DNA of 53,974 nt from Candidatus Woesearchaeota archaeon (GTDB taxonomy: Archaea; Nanobdellota; Nanobdellia; SCGC-AAA011-G17; JACPIM01): positions 1-53,974 of the forward strand of contig JAGWAC010000004.1 in the NCBI GenBank assembly GCA_018302125.1, in the 5' to 3' direction. The notes beneath the pieces are model-generated. The model had not been told where the DNA came from. It did not search any database and saw only the letters and a list, made by a program, of their open reading frames with translations. Position numbers and translations under genes: made by a program. Position 1 is the first letter of the stretch, and each line of letters starts with the position of its first letter. Below are positions 39,618 to 51,606 of this stretch, in pieces.

Positions 39618-39636
39618 TATATCTATTTTTGATATA
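39618..39636. promoter_or_regulatory. Inverted repeat TATATC-N7-GATATA, candidate operator
   Basis: Perfect 6-bp IR between divergent SHOCT and PadR genes; degenerate copy TATGTC-N7-GATAGG at 42502-42520 at the copA start. Confidence 0.4.
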
Positions 39637-39682
39637 TCAGAACAAAGGAAAGTATATAAATATTTCCAATATTAATTTTAAG

Positions 39683-40090
39683 ATGAAGAAAATAAAAATA
39701 ATAAATTTAGTAAAATTTTACACTCTTTTGTTTTTATACAAGCAGCCAATGTGCGGCTATGAACTAATTAAACAGCTTGAGAAATGCACTGGAAAGAAAA
39801 TAAGCGCTAGCCATGTTTATCCATTTTTAAGTCTTTTAAAGAAAAACAAGATAATCTTGATTAAGAAAAAAGGAGAAAGGGGGAAAAAAGACTATGCTTT
39901 AACAAAAGAAGGAAGGTACTTTACCAAAAGATTGATTGACAAATTTGCACAATTAATTGAGTTTGACAAAAAAATCAAAATATGTGTAAGCTGCGGATGT
40001 AAATTACTCAATGGGGAATACAAAGAGAAAATTGGAAATAAAATTTTGTGTTTTTGCTGCAAATACTGCGCCAAAAATTATAGACATTAA
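39683..40090 (+). CDS. PadR-family regulator with C-terminal TRASH-like metal-binding domain
   Basis: GYELIK, VYPFL, KKDYALTKEG; CVSCGC...FCCKYC. Confidence 0.88.
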   Translation: MKKIKIINLVKFYTLLFLYKQPMCGYELIKQLEKCTGKKISASHVYPFLSLLKKNKIILIKKKGERGKKDYALTKEGRYFTKRLIDKFAQLIEFDKKIKICVSCGCKLLNGEYKEKIGNKILCFCCKYCAKNYRH

Positions 40091-40096
40091 TATATT

Positions 40097-42502
40097 TTAT
40101 GGCTTATAGAACTTCATCAATAAGGAATTAGAGACCACTGATACTGAGGAAAAGGCCATTGCAGCTGCGGCTATCATTGGATTTAATAAAAATCCTGAAA
40201 AAGGGTATAAAACTCCGGCAGCTATTGGAATTCCCGCTGTATTATAGAAAAATGCCCAAAATAAATTTTGCTTAATTTTCCTTAGTGTTTTCTCTGATAT
40301 TTTAATTGCTATTGCAACGTCTCTTAAATCGTTCTTCATCAAAACTATGGTGCCTGTCTCCAGTGCAACATCTGTTCCAGAACCTATTGCAACTCCAACA
40401 TCTGCTTGGGCTAACATTGGTGCATCATTTATACCATCACCGACTGTGATTACCTTTCTACCAATGCTTTGCAGTTTTTTAACTTCCAATGCTTTGTTTT
40501 CAGGAAGAACTCCTGCAAGAACCTTGTCTATTCCTGCAATTGAAGCAATTGCTCTTGCTGTTCTTTCATTGTCGCCAGTAATCATTATAACTTCTTTGCC
40601 TAATTTCTTGAATATTTCAACTGCTTCTGTTGAATGTTCTTTTAATGTATCTGCCACAGCAATTATGCCGGCAATTCTTTTGTTTATTGCCAATATCATT
40701 ACAGTCTTTCCATGATCTTCCAGCCCAATAATAATTTCTTCTTCTTTTTTAAAAGAAATATTATTTTCCTCCATTAGTTTTCTGTTTCCCAGGTGAATTT
40801 TTCTAATACCAATATTTCCAATAACACCAAGGCCAGGAACTGCCTTGAAACTTTTGGCATCTTCCAAACTTATTTTCTTTAGCTCGGCTTTATTTAAAAT
40901 AGCTTCTGCAAGCGGGTGTTCTGATTTTTTTTCTAGTGAAGCTGCAGATTTCAACACATCTTCTTCTGAATAATTATTTAACGGAAATACATCTGTTACT
41001 TCTGGATGACCTTTTGTCAGAGTTCCTGTTTTATCCAAAACAATTGTATCTGCTTTATGGACTATCTCCAATACTTCGGCATTTTTAATTAAAATCCCAT
41101 TCTCAGCTCCTTTTCCTGTTCCAACAATGATTGCTGTTGGTGTTGCCAACCCCAATGCACAAGGGCAAGCTATGATTAATACAGCTATGAAATTGGCAAG
41201 AGCAAATGTAAACTCTTTTTCAAATATAAAATACCAAGTGAAAAATGTCAAAAATCCAATAATTAAAACGCCGACTACAAAATATTTGGAGATTATATCA
41301 GCCAACCTCTGGATTGGGGCTTTGCTTCCCTGGGCTTCTTCAACAAAATTAATTATCTGGCTTAAAACTGTATCTTTACCTATCTTAGTCGCCTTAAAAA
41401 CAAAATGGCCGTGCTTATTTATAGTTCCGCCTATAACTTGGGATTTAACTCTTTTTTCCACTGGAATACTCTCTCCAGTGATCATTGACTCATCAACAGA
41501 AGAATCCCCTTTTACTATAACTCCGTCAACAGGAATTTTCTCTCCTGGTTTAATAGAAATTAAATCATTTATTTCAACTTCTTCTATTGATATTGTAATT
41601 TCTTTATTGTTCCTTATTACAGTTGCTGTTTTGGGCTGCAAACCAATTAACTTTTTTATTGCTTCTGATGCTTTCCCCTTTGCTTTTGCTTCAAGCCATT
41701 TACCAAGCATAATAAATGTAATTATAACTGCAGCAATGTCAAAATAAAGATCAGAACCAAATGTTTCTGGTGAGAAAACACCAAGAACACTATAAAAATA
41801 AGCTGCGCTAGTTCCAAGAACTATTAGGGTATCCATGTTTGCGCTTTTTACTTTTAATGTAGTAAATGCACTTTTATAAAATCTGTAACCAATAACAAAT
41901 TGAATTGGCGTTGCCAATATGAAAAGGGCTATTTCTCTATATAAAAAATCTATTTTAAAAAATTCATAGAAAGCAAGGATAGACAAAGGTATTGTCAAGA
42001 TCAAGGAAAATATGAATAGATTTTTCAATTTTCTTATTTCAGCTGCCCTAACTTCCTTTTCTCTGTCCAAAGATGTTTCTTCTACAGCCTCATAACCAGC
42101 TGATTTTATTGTCTTGATTATATCTAAAGAGGACATTTTTTCTGGATTATATCTTATAACTGCTTTTTCATTCTGGCTTAAGTTTGCTTCAATAATTGAA
42201 TCTTTGAATTTTGCCAAAGAATTGCGGACAGACATAATGCAGTGCTCATTATCCATTCCAATTACCTTTAAATGAAGAACCCCCTGCTTGTCTTCAGAAT
42301 CAAGAACTTCATATCCTGCCCGGTTTACTGCCTGGACAAACAAATTTTCATCAGCATTTTCATATTCTATAGATGCTTTTTCTGTTGCAAAGTTAACATT
42401 AGCATTAATTACACCAGAAACTTTTTTAAGCTTTTTTTCTATAATGGTTGCACAACTTGCGCAATGCATTCCCTTTATTTTGAGGACTTTTTTCCTAACC
42501 AT
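40097..42502 (-). CDS. copA: Cu(I)-translocating P1B-type ATPase
   Basis: GMHCASC HMA, TGES, CPCALG, DKTGT, SEHP, GDGIND, YN, MAFSS. Confidence 0.97.
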
Positions 42503-42619: not shown

Positions 42620-43968
42620 ATAAAAAAGAAGAGTTATCATCTTAAAAAAGAACTAGGTTTATTTGAACTTTGTCTTTATGGGGTTGGAATTATTTTAGGC
42701 GCTGGAATTTATTCTTTGATTGGGGTTGGCGCGGGAATTGCAGGAAATGCGATCTGGCTTTCCTTCATTATGGCTGCGGTAAGCTTTCCTTCATTATGGC
42801 TGCGGTAATTGCTTCTTTTTCTGGATTAAGCTATGCTGAATTAAGCTCAATGTATCCGAAAGAGGCTGCAGAATATAATTATGTAAAAAACTCATTTAAG
42901 AGAAGATATTTCTCCTTTATAATAGGATGGCTGATGATTTTTGCAAGCATTGTTGCTGCAGTTACTGTCATCTTTGGTTTCTCAGGTTATTTTACACATA
43001 TTTTTGGCGGCAATTTAACTTTTGTTGCTTTGATTACAGTGCTAGTTCTTTCATTAATAAATTATGTTGGTATAAAAGAGTCTTCAACATTTAATATTAT
43101 TTCAACTATAATAGAAACCATAGGACTATTAATTGTTATTGGCGTCGGAATTTATTTTTATTTAAAAAACGGGCTTGGAATTGATATCTTTGAAACTCCA
43201 GGAAATTCTTTTTTCACCCCGATACTGACTGCAACATCAGTTATATTTTTTGCATATCTTGGCTTTGAGGATATTGTGAATGTTTCTGAGGAAACAAAAA
43301 ATGCAAAAAAAGTTGTGCCAAAAGCATTAGTGTTTGCAATAATAATTTCAACAATACTTTATATCTTGGTTTCTTTTGCTGCTGTCAGCATTGTCGGCTG
43401 GGAAAAACTGGCACAAAGCAAAGCCCCATTAACAGAAGCTGTTGCAGAGGTAATTCCTAATTCTGATTTTCTTTTTTCATTAATAGCAATGTTTGCAACA
43501 GCAAATACAGCCTTGATATTATTAATTGTCGGTTCAAGAATAATGTATGGCATGGCATCTGACAACAGCCTGCCAAAAATATTTTCAAAAGTTGGAGAAA
43601 GAGGAACACCTTATTTTTCTGTTATTTTTATAACAATAGTCTCTCTAATTATAGCTTTAATAGGAAATATAAAATCAGTGGCAATGCTGACTGACATAAG
43701 CCTGTTTATAGTTTATGCATTTGTCAACTCTTCATTAATTTTATTAAGATATAAAAAACCAAACATGAAAAGGAGTTTTATGACTCCGCTTAACATAGGG
43801 AAGTTCCCAATGTTGGCTCTTTTCGGATTATTGTCTTCAATATTCATGCTCTTCTTTTTTGAGAAATCAATCATATTTATAGAATTGGGCTTGATTTTGG
43901 CAGGATATTTATTATATAAAATATTTGTAAAGGAGAAAAACCAAAATAAAAAAAGGAGGAAAAAATGA
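42620..43968 (+). pseudogene. APC amino acid permease, frameshifted by a 26-bp tandem duplication
   Basis: Upstream frame encodes LKKELGLFELCLYGVGIILGAGIYSLIG; downstream frame has SYAELSS, FFAYLGFE, SEE; GGTGA is followed by ATA rather than ATG. Confidence 0.85.
42757..42808 (+). repeat. Perfect 26-bp tandem duplication
   Basis: GCTTTCCTTCATTATGGCTGCGGTAA at 42757-42782 and 42783-42808. Confidence 0.97.
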
Positions 43969-44231
43969 AATTAAAAAAACAAAATTTTGCGCTTGCAGCT
44001 GGTGCAACAATGGGAATAATATATGTTGTTTGTGCTATATTTGTTACTTTATGGCCTGATTTTGCGCTTAGGTTATTTGGCTGGCTAGTGCATTTAGTAA
44101 ATCTGGATAAATTTGCAGGTGATGTAAGAATAACATTAACAGGGTTTGTTATTGGGCTTTTGCAGGCAGTGATTTATACTTATGTTGGAGCTCTATTATT
44201 TGGTTGGCTACACAACAAATTTTTAAAGTAA
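43965..44231 (+). CDS. Small 2-TM membrane protein (DUF5676-like)
   Basis: YVVCAIFV..P...GWLVH, C-terminal HNKF pattern. Confidence 0.65.
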   Translation: MKLKKQNFALAAGATMGIIYVVCAIFVTLWPDFALRLFGWLVHLVNLDKFAGDVRITLTGFVIGLLQAVIYTYVGALLFGWLHNKFLK

Positions 44232-44294: not shown

Positions 44295-45665
44295 TCATAT
44301 TACTTTAATTATACCTGGACCAGCCATGCCCATTGAGCAACTGAATTTTATCGAGCCTTCTTTTTCAGGAACAAAATTTATTGTTTTTATCTGGTTTCTT
44401 GGCAAGTAGTCATTTATTCCTAAACTAGGCACTAAAAAAGTCTGTGCACATCCTGTTGCCCTCCTTCCATCAATACGCCATTCAACTGGAATTCCCTTTT
44501 TAACTGTAAATTTGGAGGGATAATAATCTAGACCTTCTACTTTCATTTCTATAACTTGTTTTCCTTCAACAAGTTTTGCGCTTGAATCTGTTGTTGGCGA
44601 CTGTGCATTTGCTGAAGGCAGAAATGAATCAAAATTAAACGGGCTGCCAGTTAATGTAAGACCATAACTCATATTTGTAAAACCAAGAATTATTATTAAT
44701 ACAGCAACAAATTTTGTAAAATATCTCTTGAATGTTCCTTGGGAATAGCTTGTTAAATAACCAGTTGACAATAAAGCTGGCAAGGTTCCCAGAGAAAAGG
44801 CAAACATGCTTAAAGAACCAACTAAAAAACTTCCTGTACTTAAAACATATAATTGCAAGGCCTGAGTAAAACCACAAGGTAGAAAAAATGTTGAAGAGCC
44901 AAAAAAGAATGGAGCTGATTTAGAATTTGATACTGACAAATTATGGATTTTGTGCACTACTAATTTGGGCATCTTTATTTTTAATCTATTTGTAAAAGAG
45001 AAAATATTCAGAATCTGAAAACCTAAACTAAGCATGATTATGCTTACAAATATTGTTATGAATCCTGATGCTTTTGGTGATATTTTGAATATTGATCCTA
45101 CTGCCCCCAAAAGCCCGCCTAATAATGTATATGAAAATATTCTTCCAACATTAAAATAAATGTGCGGCTTGAATTTTTGTTTTGGTGTTAAATCCGGATG
45201 TGCTTCATTATATTTTGTTGCTATTCCAAGCAACAGGCCGCCTGAAACTGCCATGCATGTTGAAAAAGCAGCAACCAATCCTATTAAAAAAATAAATCCA
45301 TAACTCATATTTTCAGAAATTCCCAGATTTGGAAGTATATCAAACTGCTTAAACAACAAATAAATTCCAAGAAGAATCAGAAAAATAGCACCAATTTCAA
45401 GATGATCTTTTTTTATTTTTATTATGCTTTTATTTTTATCTTCTACATTCTGTTTTTTTTCAGTAACCATGTATTTTGTATCTTTTAGTGCTTCTTGTAT
45501 CTGTGTTATTGATGGTACTTCAGTACAAGTTAATATTGCTTTTCCAGCTGAGTGATTTACTTCTGCTTTTAAGATTCCATTTATTGTTTTTAATTTTCTT
45601 TCTAAAAGAACTTCGCAACTAGAACAGGTCATACCAGAAATTTTTAATTCTATTTTTTCTGTCAT
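44295..45665 (-). CDS. HMA + DsbD_2 (TauE/SafE-like) + cupredoxin-domain membrane protein
   Basis: GMTCSSC; STCMAVSGG, GRIFSY, LPCGFTQ; C-terminal GCA...FSCSMGM. Confidence 0.9.
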   Translation of the reverse strand: MTEKIELKISGMTCSSCEVLLERKLKTINGILKAEVNHSAGKAILTCTEVPSITQIQEALKDTKYMVTEKKQNVEDKNKSIIKIKKDHLEIGAIFLILLGIYLLFKQFDILPNLGISENMSYGFIFLIGLVAAFSTCMAVSGGLLLGIATKYNEAHPDLTPKQKFKPHIYFNVGRIFSYTLLGGLLGAVGSIFKISPKASGFITIFVSIIMLSLGFQILNIFSFTNRLKIKMPKLVVHKIHNLSVSNSKSAPFFFGSSTFFLPCGFTQALQLYVLSTGSFLVGSLSMFAFSLGTLPALLSTGYLTSYSQGTFKRYFTKFVAVLIIILGFTNMSYGLTLTGSPFNFDSFLPSANAQSPTTDSSAKLVEGKQVIEMKVEGLDYYPSKFTVKKGIPVEWRIDGRRATGCAQTFLVPSLGINDYLPRNQIKTINFVPEKEGSIKFSCSMGMAGPGIIKVI

Positions 45666-45859
45666 TCTAATTTATATCCTAGTTTTTCTATTACTTCCTT
45701 TATTTTATTTAGATTAGTTTGTTTTTCATCAAATTCAATATTTAGTATTCCTGTTCTATAGCTTACTTCTGCTTTTACATTTATGTCCTGAAGGTCTTCT
45801 TTAATTAGTTCTTCACAGCTTTTACAGTGCATTCCTTTTACATTTAATTTTAATTTCAT
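45662..45859 (-). CDS. copZ: CopZ-like HMA copper chaperone
   Basis: VKGMHCKSC...LGY; ATG at 45859. Confidence 0.88.
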   Translation of the reverse strand: MKLKLNVKGMHCKSCEELIKEDLQDINVKAEVSYRTGILNIEFDEKQTNLNKIKEVIEKLGYKLE

Positions 45860-45978: not shown

Positions 45979-46521
45979 ATGGCAAAAAACATAGCACTTG
46001 GATTAATTTTGGTTGGCATTGCTATAATTTTTTTAATATCAATTTCAATATTTAAATTACAAATAAATAGTTTGACTAATGCATTAATGGTAGAAAGCGG
46101 GGGAACATGCATAATAGAAGGAAAATGTCTTCATGAAAAAAGCAACACACCAGTTTATATTGGGGTTGCCATAACTTTTGTTACTTTATCCCTGGGATTA
46201 TATCTTATCTTTTTTGAAAAAGGCCAAAAATATACTGAAGAAGCTTACAAAGAAATTGCAAATTCTCTGAAAGAATCAAAGAAAAAAGAAAATAAAGACG
46301 AGAAATTTAATTTTTTATTAAAGGCTCTTAATGATGATGAAAAAAATATTATGACTGCAATCAGAGACCAGAATGGAATAGAACAGGCTACTTTAAGAAT
46401 AAGAACTGATTTAAGCAAAACCAAGCTCAGCGTTCTTCTTAGTGAACTTGAGAAAAAAGGCCTTTTAAAGAAAGTAGCTGAAGGCAAAAAGAACAAAGTT
46501 TACCTTAAAATGTATATTTGA
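45979..46521 (+). CDS. Membrane-anchored winged-HTH transcription regulator
   Basis: Two TM helices flanking CIIEGKCLH; C-terminal GIEQATLRIRTDLSKTKLS.LL.ELEKKG...GKKNKV. Confidence 0.8.
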   Translation: MAKNIALGLILVGIAIIFLISISIFKLQINSLTNALMVESGGTCIIEGKCLHEKSNTPVYIGVAITFVTLSLGLYLIFFEKGQKYTEEAYKEIANSLKESKKKENKDEKFNFLLKALNDDEKNIMTAIRDQNGIEQATLRIRTDLSKTKLSVLLSELEKKGLLKKVAEGKKNKVYLKMYI

Positions 46522-46638
46522 ACGATTTGGAACAAGAATTCTGCATTTTTGAACAAAAACTGGGTGTTTGTTCTGGAAGTAAGATATTTATATTTACTTA
46601 GTTGAATTTTGTTTAAGATTTTATGAGGTGAAATTAAA

Positions 46639-47403
46639 TTGGAAAAAATGGAAGAAAAGCAAAATAAAATAAAATTTGTTAAAATTATGAATATTTTATT
46701 GGTTTTTGGCTTAATTTTTGCTCTTTACAGCCAATTTCAATTACTTTCTATAAGAGCTGTAAATTCAGATGGTTTGGAAAATGCCAATGGCGCAGTTTTT
46801 GCTTCTAGCGAGGTATTACCTGTTGGCGTGCCAAGGATATATGGCCAGAAACTTGGGATTAAATATGATTTTGTAAGCTCAAATAATCAGCAGCTGGCTG
46901 ATCAGACAATAGAAGTCTTAGGAAATCTTGACAGAACTATAAATTTAGAAGGGAAGAACTTAGAAAGATATGTTGATATTGTTTCTGAAATAAGCTGTGA
47001 ATATTGCTGCGGCGCCAAGTCAATAATTGTAAGAAAAGAGGATGTTGCAGAAATGGAGAAGAATATACAAAACGCAATAACTACAGGACAAATAACTGAG
47101 GAAGAAGCAGTCAAGTTCAGAAGAACTGCTGGCGAAGCTGCATGTGGTTGTGCACATTCTTTTGCAATGAGAGGATTAGCAAAATACCTTATTCTAAACA
47201 ATGGAGCTGAATTTACAAATGAAGAGATTTTAAATGAGTTAGGAAAATGGAAGACTTTGTTCTTTCCTGAACAAATGAGTGCCAAAGCAGCAGTAATGAA
47301 AGAAAAGAACATAGAATTTAGTTATGCTAATTTGGGAAGCAACAGATACAGGGGAATAGAACAAGGAGCTACAGCAAGCGGACAAATGGTAGGAGGATGC
47401 TGA
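46639..47403 (+). CDS. Membrane-anchored Cys-rich protein ending in QMVGGC
   Basis: N-terminal TM; CEYCC and ACGCAH motifs; GAGGTG RBS. Confidence 0.8.
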   Translation: MEKMEEKQNKIKFVKIMNILLVFGLIFALYSQFQLLSIRAVNSDGLENANGAVFASSEVLPVGVPRIYGQKLGIKYDFVSSNNQQLADQTIEVLGNLDRTINLEGKNLERYVDIVSEISCEYCCGAKSIIVRKEDVAEMEKNIQNAITTGQITEEEAVKFRRTAGEAACGCAHSFAMRGLAKYLILNNGAEFTNEEILNELGKWKTLFFPEQMSAKAAVMKEKNIEFSYANLGSNRYRGIEQGATASGQMVGGC

Positions 47404-47404
47404 A

Positions 47405-47599
47405 ATGAACAAAAAAATGATAATGCTGATTTTAGCAGTTGTTTTAGTTTTGCTGATTGGAGTACAGGCTTATGAGCTTAATGTACTGAAGAAGAACATT
47501 AATGGCGACTTTGGTTTAGAAACTGGAACATTTTCAAGTGCTACAACAGCAAAACAAAGCAGTCCAGCAGCTGCCTCACAAATGGTAGGGGGATGCTGA
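47405..47599 (+). CDS. Small membrane-anchored protein ending in QMVGGC
   Basis: TM helix, Ser/Thr/Ala linker, same C-terminal motif as the upstream gene. Confidence 0.8.
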   Translation: MNKKMIMLILAVVLVLLIGVQAYELNVLKKNINGDFGLETGTFSSATTAKQSSPAAASQMVGGC

Positions 47600-47600
47600 A

Positions 47601-48068
47601 ATGAAAAATGCTTATATTTTTTCTTTTTTTATTTTGAGCCTTTTAGGTGTATCTATTTATCTTTTGTCTGATAACCAAAATAAAATAGATGGAAATGTTG
47701 GCGAAGTTATTTTATATAAATCAAATACATGTGGTTGTTGCGGAATTTATTATAATTATCTTAGAAACAATATTGGTAATTCTATAAAGGCAGTGAATTT
47801 AGAAGATATGAATGCAATAAAAGAAAAATATACTATACCATTATTTCTCCAGAGCTGTCATACAACAATAATCAGTGGGTATTTTGTTGAGGGGCATATT
47901 CCTATTGAGGCTATTAACAAATTAATTTCAGAAAAACCAAATATAAAAGGAATAGCAATGCCTGGAATGCCTTCAGGTTCACCTGGAATGCCTGGAAAAA
48001 AGATCGGGTCTTTTGATGTTTTTGCTGTTTCAAATGATGGAAAAAGCGAATTATTTATGAGTTTGTGA
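47601..48068 (+). CDS. DUF411 (CopG-like) metal-binding protein
   Basis: YKS.TCGCC, SCHT, GYFVEGHIP, PGMPSGSPGM. Confidence 0.92.
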   Translation: MKNAYIFSFFILSLLGVSIYLLSDNQNKIDGNVGEVILYKSNTCGCCGIYYNYLRNNIGNSIKAVNLEDMNAIKEKYTIPLFLQSCHTTIISGYFVEGHIPIEAINKLISEKPNIKGIAMPGMPSGSPGMPGKKIGSFDVFAVSNDGKSELFMSL

Positions 48069-48075
48069 GGAGAAA

Positions 48076-48594
48076 ATGAAAAAATTTTTTATTTTTACTT
48101 TTTTATTAATATATTTGGATAAAGCGTATGCTCATTGTCCTCTATGCACTGTCGGCGCTGTTGCAGCTGCTGGCGGAGCTGCCTGGTTGGGATTAAGCCA
48201 AATTGTAATTGGCTTATTTATTGGGGCTTTTGCAATTTCTCTTGGATTATGGAGCTCTAGATATCTGAAGAAAAAATATGTTCCAATTCAAAATTTTTTA
48301 ATCGCTCTTTTTTTATTTTTGACAATAGTCTTGCCAGTTTTACCTCTAATGAAAGAGCTTTATCCTTTTTATATAAATATTTCTGGAGATTATGGTTCTT
48401 TGCTAAACAGGACTTATATTATAAATTCTTTTTTAGGTGGGGGCATTATAGGTGGAATTATTGTCTTTTTGTCGCCTTTTGTAAGCATGAAAATTATGAA
48501 ACTGAGAAATAATAAGCTGATCCCTTACCAGGGTGTATTAATCACTTTATTACTCTTAATAATAGCTGGGGTTATATTTCAACTGACATTATGA
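48076..48594 (+). CDS. Membrane protein with AHCPLC motif
   Basis: Signal-like N-terminus then HCPLCT; about 4 TM segments. Confidence 0.75.
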   Translation: MKKFFIFTFLLIYLDKAYAHCPLCTVGAVAAAGGAAWLGLSQIVIGLFIGAFAISLGLWSSRYLKKKYVPIQNFLIALFLFLTIVLPVLPLMKELYPFYINISGDYGSLLNRTYIINSFLGGGIIGGIIVFLSPFVSMKIMKLRNNKLIPYQGVLITLLLLIIAGVIFQLTL

Positions 48595-49016
48595 GCTTTT
48601 TTTATGTCCTTGGGATTATTTCTGTTTTGTTTTTTGTACTACTTTTTATAAAATCTTTTTTCAGACTAAATAATTTCTGTGTTATCTGCGGATCAGTAAG
48701 CTTGACATGGATATTGCTTTTAATTTTATACTGGTCTGGATATTTTAAAAATACATTAATTATTGCCTTACTTGCTGGACAGAGCATTCTTGGATTATTT
48801 TATTTATTTGAAAAAAAACTAGAGATGTTTCGCCTACCTTTTCTGCTTACTTTAACTTTTTTTGGATATTCTTTGTTTGGCGTTTATGATGGAATAAAAG
48901 AAAGTGTAATTTTCCTGCTTATTTTGTGGTTATTGTTTTTTGTTTTATACTATTATCAAGACAAAAATATGAAGTCATTTGTCAAAAAAATAATAGAGTG
49001 CTGCAGAAATTGGTAA
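48591..49016 (+). CDS. Membrane protein with CVIC and C-terminal ECCRNW
   Basis: ATGA overlap with upstream gene; about 5 TM segments. Confidence 0.75.
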   Translation: MSFFYVLGIISVLFFVLLFIKSFFRLNNFCVICGSVSLTWILLLILYWSGYFKNTLIIALLAGQSILGLFYLFEKKLEMFRLPFLLTLTFFGYSLFGVYDGIKESVIFLLILWLLFFVLYYYQDKNMKSFVKKIIECCRNW

Positions 49017-49591
49017 ACAGTAGGAATGAAAAAAACAGCAGAAGCAAGGAGAGAAAACCATTAATTTATGGTTTTCTTGGCGGAATTCTCTTAATTAGTT
49101 TTTATTTTTTTGTACTTAGTTTTGCAAACAGTTTCCAGCATGCTATGCAGGAATTTCTAAAATTATGGTATTTTATACTTCCAATTGTAGCTGGATTTGG
49201 AACCCAGGTTGGATTGTATTTTTATATAAGATCTTTTACAAATAGGATAAACTTAAATGGGGAAGTTATGGCTACTGGGGGGGTTTCTGGTGGCTCAATG
49301 ATTATCTGCTGTGTTCACCATCTTTTTGATATTCTTCCAATTATTGGGCTAAGTGCATTTTCGTTATTTTTAGTAAATTATCAGACAAGTTTTCTTTTGT
49401 TTGGAATCTTGTCCAATTTTGTTGGATTAAGCATGATTCTAGGAATTATACAAAGAAATAATCTTTATACTAAAAATAATGGCTTCTTAAGAAAGCTGAT
49501 GTTTTTAAATTATGACAGAACAGTTTATTATGTACTAGGAATTTCTGCTCTGATTTTTTTAACTAAATTAATTTCAACGAGGTGGTTTTAA
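48926..49591 (+). CDS. Membrane protein with CCVHH motif (true start probably near 49010)
   Basis: GFGTQVGLY, SMIICCVHHL.D.LP; several TM segments. Confidence 0.75.
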   Translation: MVIVFCFILLSRQKYEVICQKNNRVLQKLVNSRNEKNSRSKERKPLIYGFLGGILLISFYFFVLSFANSFQHAMQEFLKLWYFILPIVAGFGTQVGLYFYIRSFTNRINLNGEVMATGGVSGGSMIICCVHHLFDILPIIGLSAFSLFLVNYQTSFLLFGILSNFVGLSMILGIIQRNNLYTKNNGFLRKLMFLNYDRTVYYVLGISALIFLTKLISTRWF

Positions 49592-49999
49592 ATGTTTAAA
49601 GAAATATCTTTTGTATTTTTTGTAATTGTTTTAATCAGCGGGTTTTTCTTTATTTTTCTGGATTCTGGTGAAACAGAACTTAATTCATCTTCGAATTTAC
49701 AGACCAAAACAAGTCAAAGCACAGTCAGCATTGATCTTACTCCACAATCATTTAATGGAAAAGAATTTGTTGTCAACATCGGTGTGAATACACATATAAC
49801 TGATTTAAGCAGATTTGATTTAAAAGAACTTGCTGTTTTGGAAATTAATGGAAAGTCTATAAAACCAAAATCTGCACCAAAGCTTAGCGGGCATCATAAC
49901 AAAGGTGCCTTGATTTTTGATGTAAATAAAAAACCAGAAGACTTTAAGATTATAGTAAAAAGTTTTCCAGATTTAGAATTAAGAGAATTTAAATGGTAA
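49592..49999 (+). CDS. Membrane-anchored beta-rich protein with NTH and GHH motifs
   Basis: N-terminal TM; VNTHITDL, LSGHHNKG.L.F. Confidence 0.75.
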   Translation: MFKEISFVFFVIVLISGFFFIFLDSGETELNSSSNLQTKTSQSTVSIDLTPQSFNGKEFVVNIGVNTHITDLSRFDLKELAVLEINGKSIKPKSAPKLSGHHNKGALIFDVNKKPEDFKIIVKSFPDLELREFKW

Positions 50000-50449: not shown

Positions 50450-50797
50450 ATGCCCCACGCAATTTTTACAAATCCACAAATTGCTTCTGTAGGATACACA
50501 GAACAGGAATTAAAAGATAAAAAAATAAATTATGCAGTTGGAAAATACAATTATATTGATACTGGAATGGGTCAAGCAATAGAAGAAAAAGAAGGCTTTG
50601 TAAAAATATTAGTTGAAAAATCAACAGGAAAAATTCTAGGCTGTCATATTATTGGTCATGAAGCAAGTACACTAATCCATGAAGTGATCATAGCAATAAA
50701 GTCAGGTTCTGGAACAATAGACAACATTACAAATTCTGTTCATATTCATCCATCTTTGTCAGAAGTAGTTCAAAGAGCAGCAAATAGCAGCATCTAA
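50450..50797 (+). pseudogene. Isolated C-terminal dimerisation domain of a pyridine nucleotide-disulfide oxidoreductase (Lpd/Mtr-like)
   Basis: PHAIFTNPQIASVG, ILGCHIIG, HIHPSLSE; FAD/NAD domains absent upstream. Confidence 0.8.
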
Positions 50798-50868: not shown

Positions 50869-51606
50869 ATGGAAGAACAGAAAGAAGAAACTATAACATT
50901 AAAGAAAACAACAATATGGAAAATTTCAGCTGTTGTATTAGGTATTCTTTTCATAATATCAATTTTTACAGGCGGCTTTGGTTTTAGAGATAACGCTCCT
51001 ACTGGAGGTACAGTATTAGATGACACTGGAAATAATGAACCAACAATAATAGCAAAAGTAAGTGTTGATGACGATCCAGTTTTAGGTAATAAAAATGCGC
51101 CTGTAACAATAATTGAATTTTCAGATTATCAATGTCCTTTCTGTAGAAGATCTTATACCCAAGTTTATTCTTTATTAAAAGAAAATTTCATAAATACAGA
51201 TAAAGCAAAATTAGTTTTTAGAGATTTTCCATTGACAAGCATACATCCAGGAGCATTGCCAGCAGCAGAAGCAGCTGAATGTGCAGATGAACAAGGAAAA
51301 TATTGGGAAATGCATGATAAAATATTCGATGAACAAAATAAATTTGGTCAAGGAACAGTTCCTTTTACAAATGACGATTTAAAAAAATGGGCTTCTGAAA
51401 TAGGATTAAGCACAGGAGACTTTAATTCATGCTTGGATTCTGGAAAATACAAAAGCGAAGTTGAAAAAGATTTTAGCGACGGAAATGCATACGGAGTTTC
51501 AGGAACCCCAACTTACTTTATTGGCAATGATAAAGATGGTTATGTAATAGTTGGTGGAGCTCAGCCTTATCAAGTATTTGAACAAGCAATTAACCAATAT
51601 TTATAA
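50869..51606 (+). CDS. Membrane-anchored DsbA-family thioredoxin-fold protein
   Basis: APVTIIEFSDYQCPFC, RDFPL, GVSGTPT, GAQPY. Confidence 0.93.
   Translation: MEEQKEETITLKKTTIWKISAVVLGILFIISIFTGGFGFRDNAPTGGTVLDDTGNNEPTIIAKVSVDDDPVLGNKNAPVTIIEFSDYQCPFCRRSYTQVYSLLKENFINTDKAKLVFRDFPLTSIHPGALPAAEAAECADEQGKYWEMHDKIFDEQNKFGQGTVPFTNDDLKKWASEIGLSTGDFNSCLDSGKYKSEVEKDFSDGNAYGVSGTPTYFIGNDKDGYVIVGGAQPYQVFEQAINQYL

Follow-up and report, generated by a model that had tools for sequence, protein, structure and literature searches.

A membrane-protein cassette recurring beside the copper pump of DPANN archaea: likely an as yet undescribed system for handling copper or thiols at the cell surface

What might seven short genes for membrane-anchored proteins, all but one of them foreign to the known families and each carrying a cysteine and/or histidine motif of its own, be doing behind a regulator that itself appears to sit in the membrane, a few kilobases away from a copper pump? 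This question is raised by positions 45979-49999 (+ strand) of contig JAGWAC010000004.1 of a Candidatus Woesearchaeota archaeon (the whole 53,974-nt stretch that was analyzed is referred to as the window; the genome it comes from amounts to 829 kb in 33 contigs, with an estimated completeness of 96.9% and a G+C content of about 30%), where the gene of a winged-helix regulator with two transmembrane (TM) segments, reg, is followed by seven genes on the same strand, o1 to o7. A first-pass annotation made from the window sequence alone had interpreted the row as an extracytoplasmic module of copper capture, relay and redox chemistry controlled by a transmembrane metal sensor, and this interpretation is partly supported by what is reported below. 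The genes are real, their motifs and order recur far beyond chance, and the cassette, found beside a copper pump in many DPANN archaea, is probably an undescribed system of cell-surface copper or thiol handling, that is, a kind of envelope copper/thiol homeostasis built almost entirely from undescribed protein families.

The seven genes follow one another as tightly as had been claimed (gaps or overlaps of +7 to -19 nt; from o1 to o7 the junctions are 1, 1, 7, -4, -19 and 0 nt), and only reg is set apart from o1, by 117 nt. The regulator gene (45979-46521, +) encodes a putative membrane-anchored one-component regulator with two TM segments, a presumed outside loop holding C44, C50 and H52, and a C-terminal winged helix; past the intergenic region (46519-46638, +), which holds conserved boxes in an alignment of 10 loci, o1 (46639-47403, +; TTG start, with an alternative ATG at 46648) encodes an N-terminal TM anchor with an ectodomain predicted to be all-alpha, and o2 (47405-47599, +) a 64-aa protein in which a low-complexity linker joins the N-terminal TM anchor to a closing MVGGC. 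The CopG/DUF411 gene o3 (47601-48068, +) starts with a hydrophobic segment and carries CGCC, SCH, EGH and MPGMPSGSPGM, while o4 (48076-48594, +) combines a signal-like segment ending in A-x-A with H20-C21-P-L-C24 and about four TM segments. The polytopic o5 (48591-49016, +) has C30-x2-C33 at the start of its second TM segment and a basic C-terminal tail, KKIIECCRNW; o6 (48998-49591, +) spans the membrane with five helices, of which TM2 bears GFGxQ and TM3 S-M-x2-C-C-x-H; and o7 (49592-49999, +) pairs an N-terminal TM anchor with a putative beta-sandwich ectodomain containing H68 and H101-H102. The longest open reading frame (ORF) of o6 starts at 48926, but the GTG at 48998, which yields the 19-nt overlap with o5, was preferred because the product then begins with MLQKLV, just like its homologues (MLQKMV). 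By hydropathy, o1, o2, o3 and o7 each have a single hydrophobic segment, located at the N-terminus; reg has two and o4 to o6 have several. Every motif that the annotation had listed is present: CEYCC, CGCAH and MVGGC in o1, MVGGC in o2, CGCC, CH and GH in o3, HCPLC in o4, CVIC and ECC in o5, CCVHH in o6, TH and GHH in o7, and, in reg, CIIEGKCLH in the loop that connects its two hydrophobic segments.

The copper genes of the window lie on the - strand on the other side of reg. Divergent from it, as had been stated, are copZ (45662-45859, -), an HMA metallochaperone gene (Pfam HMA 1.6e-13), and a gene for an HMA-DsbD_2-cupredoxin protein (44295-45665, -; Pfam DsbD_2 2.2e-37, HMA 7.6e-10 and Cupredoxin_1 1.2e-9); farther away comes CopA (40097-42502, -), a Cu(I) P-type ATPase with two HMA domains and a Pfam E1-E2_ATPase domain that matches TIGR01511 at an E of 5.9e-193, over its cut-off. 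All three serve as context here and copZ lies outside the operon. The linkage of homologues to copA, upon which the annotation had made its proposal depend, holds in other DPANN genomes. The o1 protein is encoded in 365 reference genomes, the taxon labels on genomes with o1 relatives being Woesearchaeota, Nanoarchaeota, Pacearchaeota, Aenigmatarchaeota and Micrarchaeota, which marks the organism as a DPANN archaeon, and synteny was assessed in the 80 closest of these 365 loci, many of which lie on short contigs and whose genomes, being related, are not independent observations; a crude ORF calling (reading frames of 35 aa or more, starting with whichever of ATG, GTG and TTG comes first behind a stop) supplied the proteins, which were searched by blastp with the window proteins as well as by hidden Markov models (HMMs) of the families. 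A strictly defined CopA (a CPC motif and an alignment of 300 aa or more with no less than 40% identity) lies within 10 kb of o1 in 32/80 loci, at a median distance of 3.9 kb (41/80 under a looser blast criterion); of the 25 loci whose sequence extends 9 kb or more to each side, 15 have one. For comparison, a gene present once in a ~1-Mb genome would, by our estimate, fall within ±10 kb by chance in roughly 2% of cases. In a phylum sample of 301 evenly drawn genomes, searched with the o1 profile and with the Cu-ATPase model TIGR01511 (E<=1e-60), o1 was detected in 76 genomes (70 of 225 genera) and TIGR01511 in 204; a hand tally of the two match lists, again over related genomes, places CopA in 69/76 o1-positive and 135/225 o1-negative genomes, and the two share a contig within 10 kb of each other in many genomes, for example G283 (0.1 kb), G273 (1.6 kb), G023, G096 and G111. 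The link between o1 and copA is thus real, yet not absolute.

How much of a unit the cassette is can be read from the family counts in the 80 loci, where the HMMs found reg in 65, o2-like proteins in 65, o4 in 51, o3 in 38, o6 in 27, o5 in 24 and o7 in 21; the o2-like ORFs lie downstream of o1 in 65/80 loci. Where the sequence reaches 4 kb or more beyond o1, which is so in 54 loci, at least one of o3 to o7 follows on the same strand within 7 kb in 51, at least two in 37 and at least three in 22, the three without any being L005, L029 and L058 (in the last of which the genes lie upstream on the other strand). The counts outline a core in which o1 is joined by one or two small proteins with an MVGGC tail, usually along with o4 and variably with CopG, o5 and o6/o7. 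A genome of the same genus, G098, is particularly instructive, as its genes run co-directionally in the order S10, a reg-like gene, copZ, the HMA-DsbD_2-cupredoxin gene and CopA with nothing between reg/copZ and S10, whereas the window has o1-o7 at exactly this empty position, from which it follows that the cassette enters or leaves the cop locus as one block. Taken together with the natural o6-o7 fusions and with the CopG-like/membrane-protein fusions that replace o3 and o4 (both described below), the absence of precisely o1-o7 from G098 argues for one accessory cassette.

A search with o1 yields 1679 relatives at E<=1e-3, no Pfam domain appearing in the 120 matches listed, and the protein matches 300 representative clusters out of 1.84 billion at E<=1e-3 (245 at 1e-10 and 118 at 1e-30). 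An alignment of 59 sequences shows no variation at C120, C123, C124, C169, C171 and H173, nor in the M-V-G-G-C that closes the protein, which presents itself as a C120-x2-C123-C124 and a C169-x-C171-x-H173 motif followed by a flexible tail that ends in MVGGC. No Pfam match at E<=0.1 other than a sub-threshold RNase_J, no NCBIfam match and no match to PDB sequences was obtained for it. Its AlphaFold model, built from the 59-sequence alignment (mean predicted local distance difference test score, pLDDT, 89.6), shows a long N-terminal helix and an all-alpha ectodomain, with both cysteine motifs located in loops with isolated bridge residues; Foldseek against the PDB returned nothing at E<=1e-3, and the top structural match of the ectodomain (model residues 98-237) is the periplasmic domain of CcmH, a three-helix bundle whose CxxC lies in the loop that follows helix 1 (2hl7_A; Z 6.4, root-mean-square deviation (rmsd) 2.9, 76 of 82 residues), a Z that falls within the noise range stated for helical models. 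The Atlas structure search likewise lists a CcmH cluster (TM-score value 0.56) among otherwise unnamed ones, and the CcmH Pfam model PF03918 matches nothing in the genome at E<=10; because the Z is within the noise and Pfam CcmH is absent from the genome, CcmH is kept as a lead only. A complex prediction for o1 with o4, the most frequent pair, scored 0.01, a value obtained without controls that neither supports nor opposes binding. Some o1 homologues (P0052, P0063, P0075 and P0081) carry a charged N-terminal extension of 40-60 residues ahead of the TM segment with a CC pair in it (for instance SRCCS or DSCCH), which could, judging by the sequence, constitute a cytoplasmic metal site on the same protein; the o1 match at G070:C5:24426-24671 holds two in-frame TGA codons, and either a broken copy or a recoded genome is possible there.

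The tail is shared by o2, whose aligned homologues all (18/18) end in MVGGC; its HMM gave 81 matches, of which 76 end in this pentapeptide and six are o1 proteins, several loci having two small copies, and neither Pfam and NCBIfam nor the PDB sequences gave any match for it.

The only gene that could be assigned to a known family is, as had been proposed, the DUF411 gene o3, the other six having no Pfam, NCBIfam or PDB-sequence match, which also means that none of them turned out to belong to a characterized family of unrelated function. It matches Pfam DUF411 at an E of 8.2e-25 (86.7 bits, cut-off 27) and the CopG structure from the PDB (6WIS, chain 6wis_A) at 9.2e-20, with CGCC, SCH, EGH and MPGMPxGSPGM all aligning, the copper-cluster motif C44-G-C46-C47 and the nearby Met included; it is a canonical CopG family member and, by these residues, is predicted to bind a copper cluster. 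In a review (PMC7558416), CopG is described as periplasmic and thioredoxin-like, holding a Cu4 cluster by means of CxCC and two Met, and as contributing to anaerobic copper resistance from a gene linked to copA. Among the o3 homologues C44 and C47 are present in 39/39 and C46 in 29/39, and nine of the remaining 10 are long forms with CGHC. These long forms, proteins of 392-398 aa that replace o3 in nine loci (L001, L003, L004, L011, L012, L013, L016, L017 and L021; e.g., L001:2352-3530), none of which has an o4 match, consist of an N-terminal DUF411-like domain carrying the CGHC (Pfam 7.8e-4, below cut-off) and a polytopic C-terminal half with weak similarity to SfLAP (4.8e-5, below cut-off) and with cysteines in two TM segments. 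In two further loci, DUF411 is fused to a rhodanese domain (L019:10837-11580, with Pfam Rhodanese 2.8e-14 and DUF411 3e-25, and L073:10844-11617), which hints at sulfur-transfer chemistry around CopG.

Outside this genome, the membrane proteins too keep their cysteine and histidine motifs with little or no variation, another point on which the annotation had made itself vulnerable; the counts that follow refer to homologues from the 80 loci. The o4 profile collects 536 proteins, with no Pfam domain among the matches listed, and C21 and C24 are kept in 51/51 aligned homologues and H20 in 50/51, A19 being invariant as well. In o5, C30 and C33 are found in 25/25 homologues and the CC pair of the tail in 18/25; both cysteine groups are probably on the basic, cytoplasmic side, as read from the charge distribution. 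The o5 tail reappears in c5, a family of soluble proteins encoded nearby (hhalign 88%, 16 columns). This family is absent from the window and directly follows o4 in 35/80 loci (e.g., L023:3102-3575, L024:11941-12426 and L025:6261-6764); its members are soluble-looking proteins of ~160 aa without a Pfam match that carry the motifs DLSIxLMNLxSLEEH and WCISKH and the C-terminal tail KKxxDCCKE(W). For all of o4 to o7, no Pfam or NCBIfam family was found at E<=0.1, and their profiles had no meaningful match among PDB sequences (none at E<=10 for o7). Several memberships that the architectures bring to mind were tried and dropped: DsbD_2/CcdA for o4, o5 and o6 (hhalign probabilities of 0.4%, 0.3% and 1.6%, respectively, against an alignment of the window's own DsbD_2 domain and five relatives, and no Pfam match), VKOR/DsbB, marked by two outward-facing cysteine pairs, for o5 (no Pfam/NCBIfam at E<=0.1), MerT/MerF/MerC for o6 (no NCBIfam or Pfam Mer match) and CopC/CrdA/PCuAC for o7 as a sequence family (no Pfam or NCBIfam match). 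Comparing all family pairs by hhalign revealed no relationship besides the o5-c5 tail and a weak one between o6 and c13 (36.6%).

Numbered from window position 49046, the o6 residues C88, C89 and H91 are present in 28/28 homologues and M85 in 27/28; the profile gathers 188 proteins with no Pfam domain among the matches listed, Pfam scans of the 28 members gave scattered single matches (DUF5643 once, at 5.2e-5) and none to a Mer family, and the ESM Atlas offered unnamed clusters only. The weakly similar c13, seen in 16 loci (e.g., L003:5527-6027 and L002:7656-8141), is a membrane family of ~166 aa without Pfam matches, with GCP(I/V)C in a TM segment and LPFKGLE(I/F)Q. As for o7, a protein without any cysteine, H68, H101 and H102 are present in 20/20 homologues. 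The two are one polypeptide, with o7 at the C-terminus of o6, in four of 28 family members (L064, L052, L039 and L054), and the structure was modelled on the natural L064 fusion, which is 41% (o6) and 23% (o7) identical to the window proteins. The model (pLDDT 89.9) shows five long helices plus short ones and a beta-sandwich at residues 181-290; no clear structural match was found for its membrane part. The sandwich matches 3fbq (Z 10.9), the N-domain of ScsB (Z 8.1) and MPT63 (Foldseek 5e-5), and its second-best match is CrdA of H. pylori (9ll2_A; Z 9.7, rmsd 2.9 over 98 residues, Foldseek 6e-4), which is described as a putative copper-binding protein (PMC9182242). Sandwiches that bind no metal (3fbq, MPT63) thus match as well as or better than CrdA, and the CrdA-like fold of o7 is only suggestive because the beta-sandwich is a common fold.

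Of the claim that a one-component transmembrane sensor with a CIIEGKCLH loop is in charge, the two-TM winged-helix architecture is supported, and the loop motif varies among relatives. The reg product has its two hydrophobic segments and, at residues 119-176, a winged helix recognized by Pfam DUF7343 (37.9 bits, cut-off 27.6; MarR models stay below their cut-offs), and the loop of about 30 residues between the segments holds a cysteine pair; among homologues, C44 is kept in 45/62, C50 in 53/62 and H52 in as few as 18/62. At least two Cys occur within the first 100 residues of 63/74 reg relatives, at spacings from 5 to 13, and the exact C-x5-C, present in 26/74 only, was dropped as the sensor motif of the family. 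Of the 69 loci with 1.2 kb or more of sequence before o1, 37 have a reg relative as the gene immediately preceding it, whereas only 9/74 reg-family ORFs in the 80 loci are found no farther than 500 nt from an ORF for copA, copZ or HMA-DsbD_2. In G098 and in G044, a second genome of the same genus that has CopA but is devoid of o1-o7, a reg relative of 173 aa (48% identity) with two hydrophobic segments is located directly and co-directionally upstream of copZ, the loops reading GGICVVDGVCIHE and NNNCFINGECTHQ, a location that ties the family to the cop genes independently of o1-o7.

The spacer between reg and o1 is itself conserved, with a mean column identity of 65% and 25 invariant columns over 10 loci whose proteins are only 50-65% identical. 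TGAAC(G/A)AT-type repeats occupy columns 1-5, 11-15 and 32-36 of the alignment, GTT(T)C stands in inverted orientation near column 52, and a TATA-like GTAAGnTATAT follows some 50 nt before the start codon of o1; the spacer is read as the promoter plus operator of the o1 operon, the boxes of which reg may bind.

We come now to what the whole could do. Slightly better than even, in our judgement, are the prospects of reg and o1-o7 being an accessory cassette of the cop locus that performs extracytoplasmic Cu(I) capture and relay together with CopA. Cu(I) exported by CopA or arriving from outside would be caught by the membrane-tethered MVGGC tails of o1 and o2, with Met and Cys as ligands, and handed over to the cluster of CopG and the Cys5-His site in the ectodomain of o1; o4, with its mature N-terminal His-Cys-x2-Cys at the membrane surface, and o5, with a CxxC and a CC tail on the probably cytoplasmic face, would link these sites with the membrane or the cytoplasm, acting as partners in thiol redox or in metal transfer. 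The intramembrane CC-x-H of o6 and the His3 beta-sandwich of o7 would form a membrane/ectodomain pair in the manner of CopD-CopC, and reg, by way of the cysteine pair in its outside loop, would switch on the promoter located just 3' of its own stop codon. The topology implied, with the domains of o1, o2, o3 and o7 and the HCPLC of o4 outside, and with the o5 cysteine groups and the start of o6 TM3 nearer to the cytoplasmic face, is inferred from the charge distribution and the o6-o7 fusion. Invariance of V-G-G within MVGGC suggests, moreover, that the tail must fit the active sites of partners, and on this basis it is possible, which we put forward tentatively, that MVGGC might be a swinging carrier arm resembling that of SoxY, its membrane-tethered terminal cysteine, aided by the Met, passing either Cu(I) or sulfane sulfur among the active sites of o1, CopG, o4 and o6/o7, in a system that would comprise six families without described relatives and a membrane-embedded archaeal transcription factor as its switch.

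Several observations weigh against Cu(I) capture and relay. Seven of the 76 o1-positive genomes (G086, G234, G001, G138, G188, G198 and G255) have no Cu-ATPase match, and these seven are 93-100% complete; 48/80 loci show no strict CopA in the DNA available, many of the loci being short; CopA is common regardless, occurring in 60% of o1-negative genomes; and the relatedness of the genomes, along with the choice of the 80 closest loci out of the 365, makes all of the counts less independent than they look. The box of the reg-o1 spacer is not enriched elsewhere in the window (seven matches to TGAACRAT, 5.05 expected, and none at the copA or copZ promoters), and so a wider regulon including copA and copZ is not supported. 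On the chemical side, motifs made wholly of cysteines fit thiol-disulfide chemistry equally well, a His3 site such as that of o7 would more typically hold Cu(II), Zn or Ni than Cu(I), V-G-G is more strictly invariant than metal ligation requires, the fold matches of o7 fall on a very common beta-sandwich, and related loci have thioredoxin repeats and DsbA genes as neighbours and a CopG-like fusion with a thioredoxin-type CGHC.

Much of this list leads to the principal competitor of the Cu(I) relay, a thiol-disulfide relay of the Dsb, Scs or CcdA-ResA-CcmH kind that would repair or protect the cysteines of surface proteins under copper or oxidative stress, which we deem rather unlikely though deserving of serious attention. 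Copper would then be the trigger and not the cargo, o1 a CcmH-like oxidoreductase, CopG its thioredoxin-fold partner and o4/o5 the electron conduits. That CcmH is the best structural match of the o1 ectodomain and recurs in the Atlas agrees with it, although this Z lies in the noise range and Pfam CcmH finds nothing in the genome. The long CGHC forms with a membrane domain in place of o3 and o4 (the weak SfLAP similarity included) agree with it as well, whereas the o3 of the window retains the full set of CopG copper-cluster motifs; so do the DsbA-like genes in 15-19 loci and the triple-thioredoxin repeats in 11 loci nearby. Against it, o4, o5 and o6 have no profile similarity to the neighbouring DsbD_2 (hhalign at most 1.6%) and no Pfam DsbB or VKOR match at E<=0.1. 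The N-terminal domain of ScsB is indeed among the fold matches of o7 (Z 8.1), a protein that nevertheless lacks cysteine and keeps three invariant His, and the variable spacing of the cysteine pair in the reg loop would suit a disulfide switch.

It seems improbable that the cassette handles another thiophilic metal (Hg, Ag, Cd or Zn) by an uptake similar to that of MerT/MerP/MerC. A vicinal CC in a TM helix, as in o6, and HMA proteins nearby do recall the Mer transport proteins, and ArsR-type regulators occur in 13 loci and DUF302 in 12; against this, there is no MerA/MerB and no NCBIfam Mer match for o1-o7, the adjacent pump is an IB1 Cu-ATPase well over the cut-off, and o3 is a CopG. About equally improbable is a carrier of persulfide or polysulfide sulfur, in which the terminal Cys of MVGGC would move sulfane sulfur between partner active sites, and copper might be detoxified as sulfide or environmental sulfur might be handled: the invariance of the C-terminal pentapeptide, Gly-Gly before the Cys included, and the rhodanese-DUF411 fusions of L019 and L073 speak in its favour, but rhodanese sits on only 2/38 o3 homologues, no Sox, Dsr or sulfide:quinone oxidoreductase genes are present among the neighbour clusters, and the consistent neighbours are metal genes. 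Finally, unrelated small membrane ORFs adjoining by chance can practically be dismissed, given junctions that overlap or measure 0-7 nt, a gene order recurring across DPANN lineages, natural fusions and cassette-like presence/absence.

Around the cassette, a number of further genes may be recorded. A two-TM DUF5676 protein is encoded at 43965-44231 (+; Pfam 7.5e-16), overlapping the end of an amino-acid permease gene by 4 nt, and its relatives occur in 23-25/80 loci, often beside copA or just after o1. A PadR-family regulator (39629-40090, +; Pfam 4.4e-11) lies tail-to-tail with copA, and a homologue adjoins copA in all three relatives checked (L081, L082 and L083). Between S10 and a DsbA-like gene there is a 115-aa ORF (50450-50797, +) that consists of the dimerization domain of a pyridine nucleotide-disulphide oxidoreductase alone (Pfam 4.6e-33) and appears to be a gene remnant or a split gene; the DsbA/Thioredoxin_4 protein itself (50869-51606, +) has an N-terminal hydrophobic segment and CPFC, with relatives in 15-19/80 loci. 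Found in 26/80 loci and often next to copA (e.g., L002:13985-14539 and L001:5719-6288) is a family in which a signal peptide, the motif MEQMHPGxxHExMD, a stretch rich in Met and Gly and a single TM segment are combined with SHOCT as the C-terminal domain (Pfam 9.6e-7). The sequencing runs found to match the window DNA are groundwater and soil metagenome DNA runs, with no RNA run among them.

Why should any of this matter? About 4 kb, or 0.5% of the 829 kb, are spent on the cassette, and its core gene is present in a quarter of the sampled phylum; for DPANN genomes of less than ~1.5 Mb, such a cost and such a spread speak for a real selective role. If Cu(I) capture and relay is indeed what the cassette does, six unannotated protein families would obtain a testable function, the poorly understood CopG would gain a defined set of partners, a rare membrane-anchored one-component transcription factor would be added to those of archaea, and it would become apparent how anaerobes without multicopper oxidases handle Cu(I) outside the membrane. 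The MVGGC tail, in addition, provides a simple searchable signature for further members. No description of such an operon or of MVGGC-tailed proteins, and no paper on DUF7343, was found in the openly accessible articles searched.

The closest known systems each share a part of the cassette. CopG of Pseudomonas aeruginosa (PDB 6WIS) is the nearest, o3 being a member of its family and likewise linked to copA; unlike it, o3 is one of seven co-operonic proteins in an archaeon, is N-terminally anchored or secreted, and is in relatives replaced by a CGHC/membrane-domain fusion or fused to rhodanese. The Scs, Dsb and CcdA-ResA-CcmH systems resemble the cassette in combining envelope CxxC proteins with a membrane partner and in their link to copper tolerance, with weak hints from folds (CcmH for o1, the ScsB N-domain for o7); sequence-level membership is lacking, the cysteine patterns of the cassette are different (CxxCC, CxCxH, terminal MVGGC and N-terminal HCxxC), and its His3 beta-sandwich and CC-x-H membrane protein have no counterpart there. 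With CopC-CopD/YcnJ and CrdA, the cassette shares a putative metal-binding beta-sandwich paired with, or fused to, a polytopic protein, as o7 is with o6; there is, unlike in CopC-CopD, no Pfam CopC/CopD match, and the putative ligands of o7 are three His, whereas those of CopC are an N-terminal His brace and those of CrdA are Met sites, o6 for its part having five helices with an intramembrane CC-x-H. ToxR and CadC are membrane-anchored one-component regulators, and reg is similar to them in that the DNA-binding domain is predicted to be tethered to the membrane and the sensing part would lie outside the cell; it differs in being archaeal, in having its DUF7343 domain C-terminal, after two TM segments, and in a sensor that would consist only of a loop of ~30 residues with a cysteine pair. 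Lastly, the C-terminal GGCGG arm of SoxY and the C-terminal Cys pair of MerA are carrier arms, and the invariant tails of o1 and o2 are like them flexible and end in a Gly-flanked Cys which, by this analogy, must presumably enter the active sites of partners; what would set the cassette apart from both is that MVGGC stands at the very C-terminus, on proteins tethered to the membrane and apparently exposed outside, and that a single operon seems to encode two protein types bearing it.

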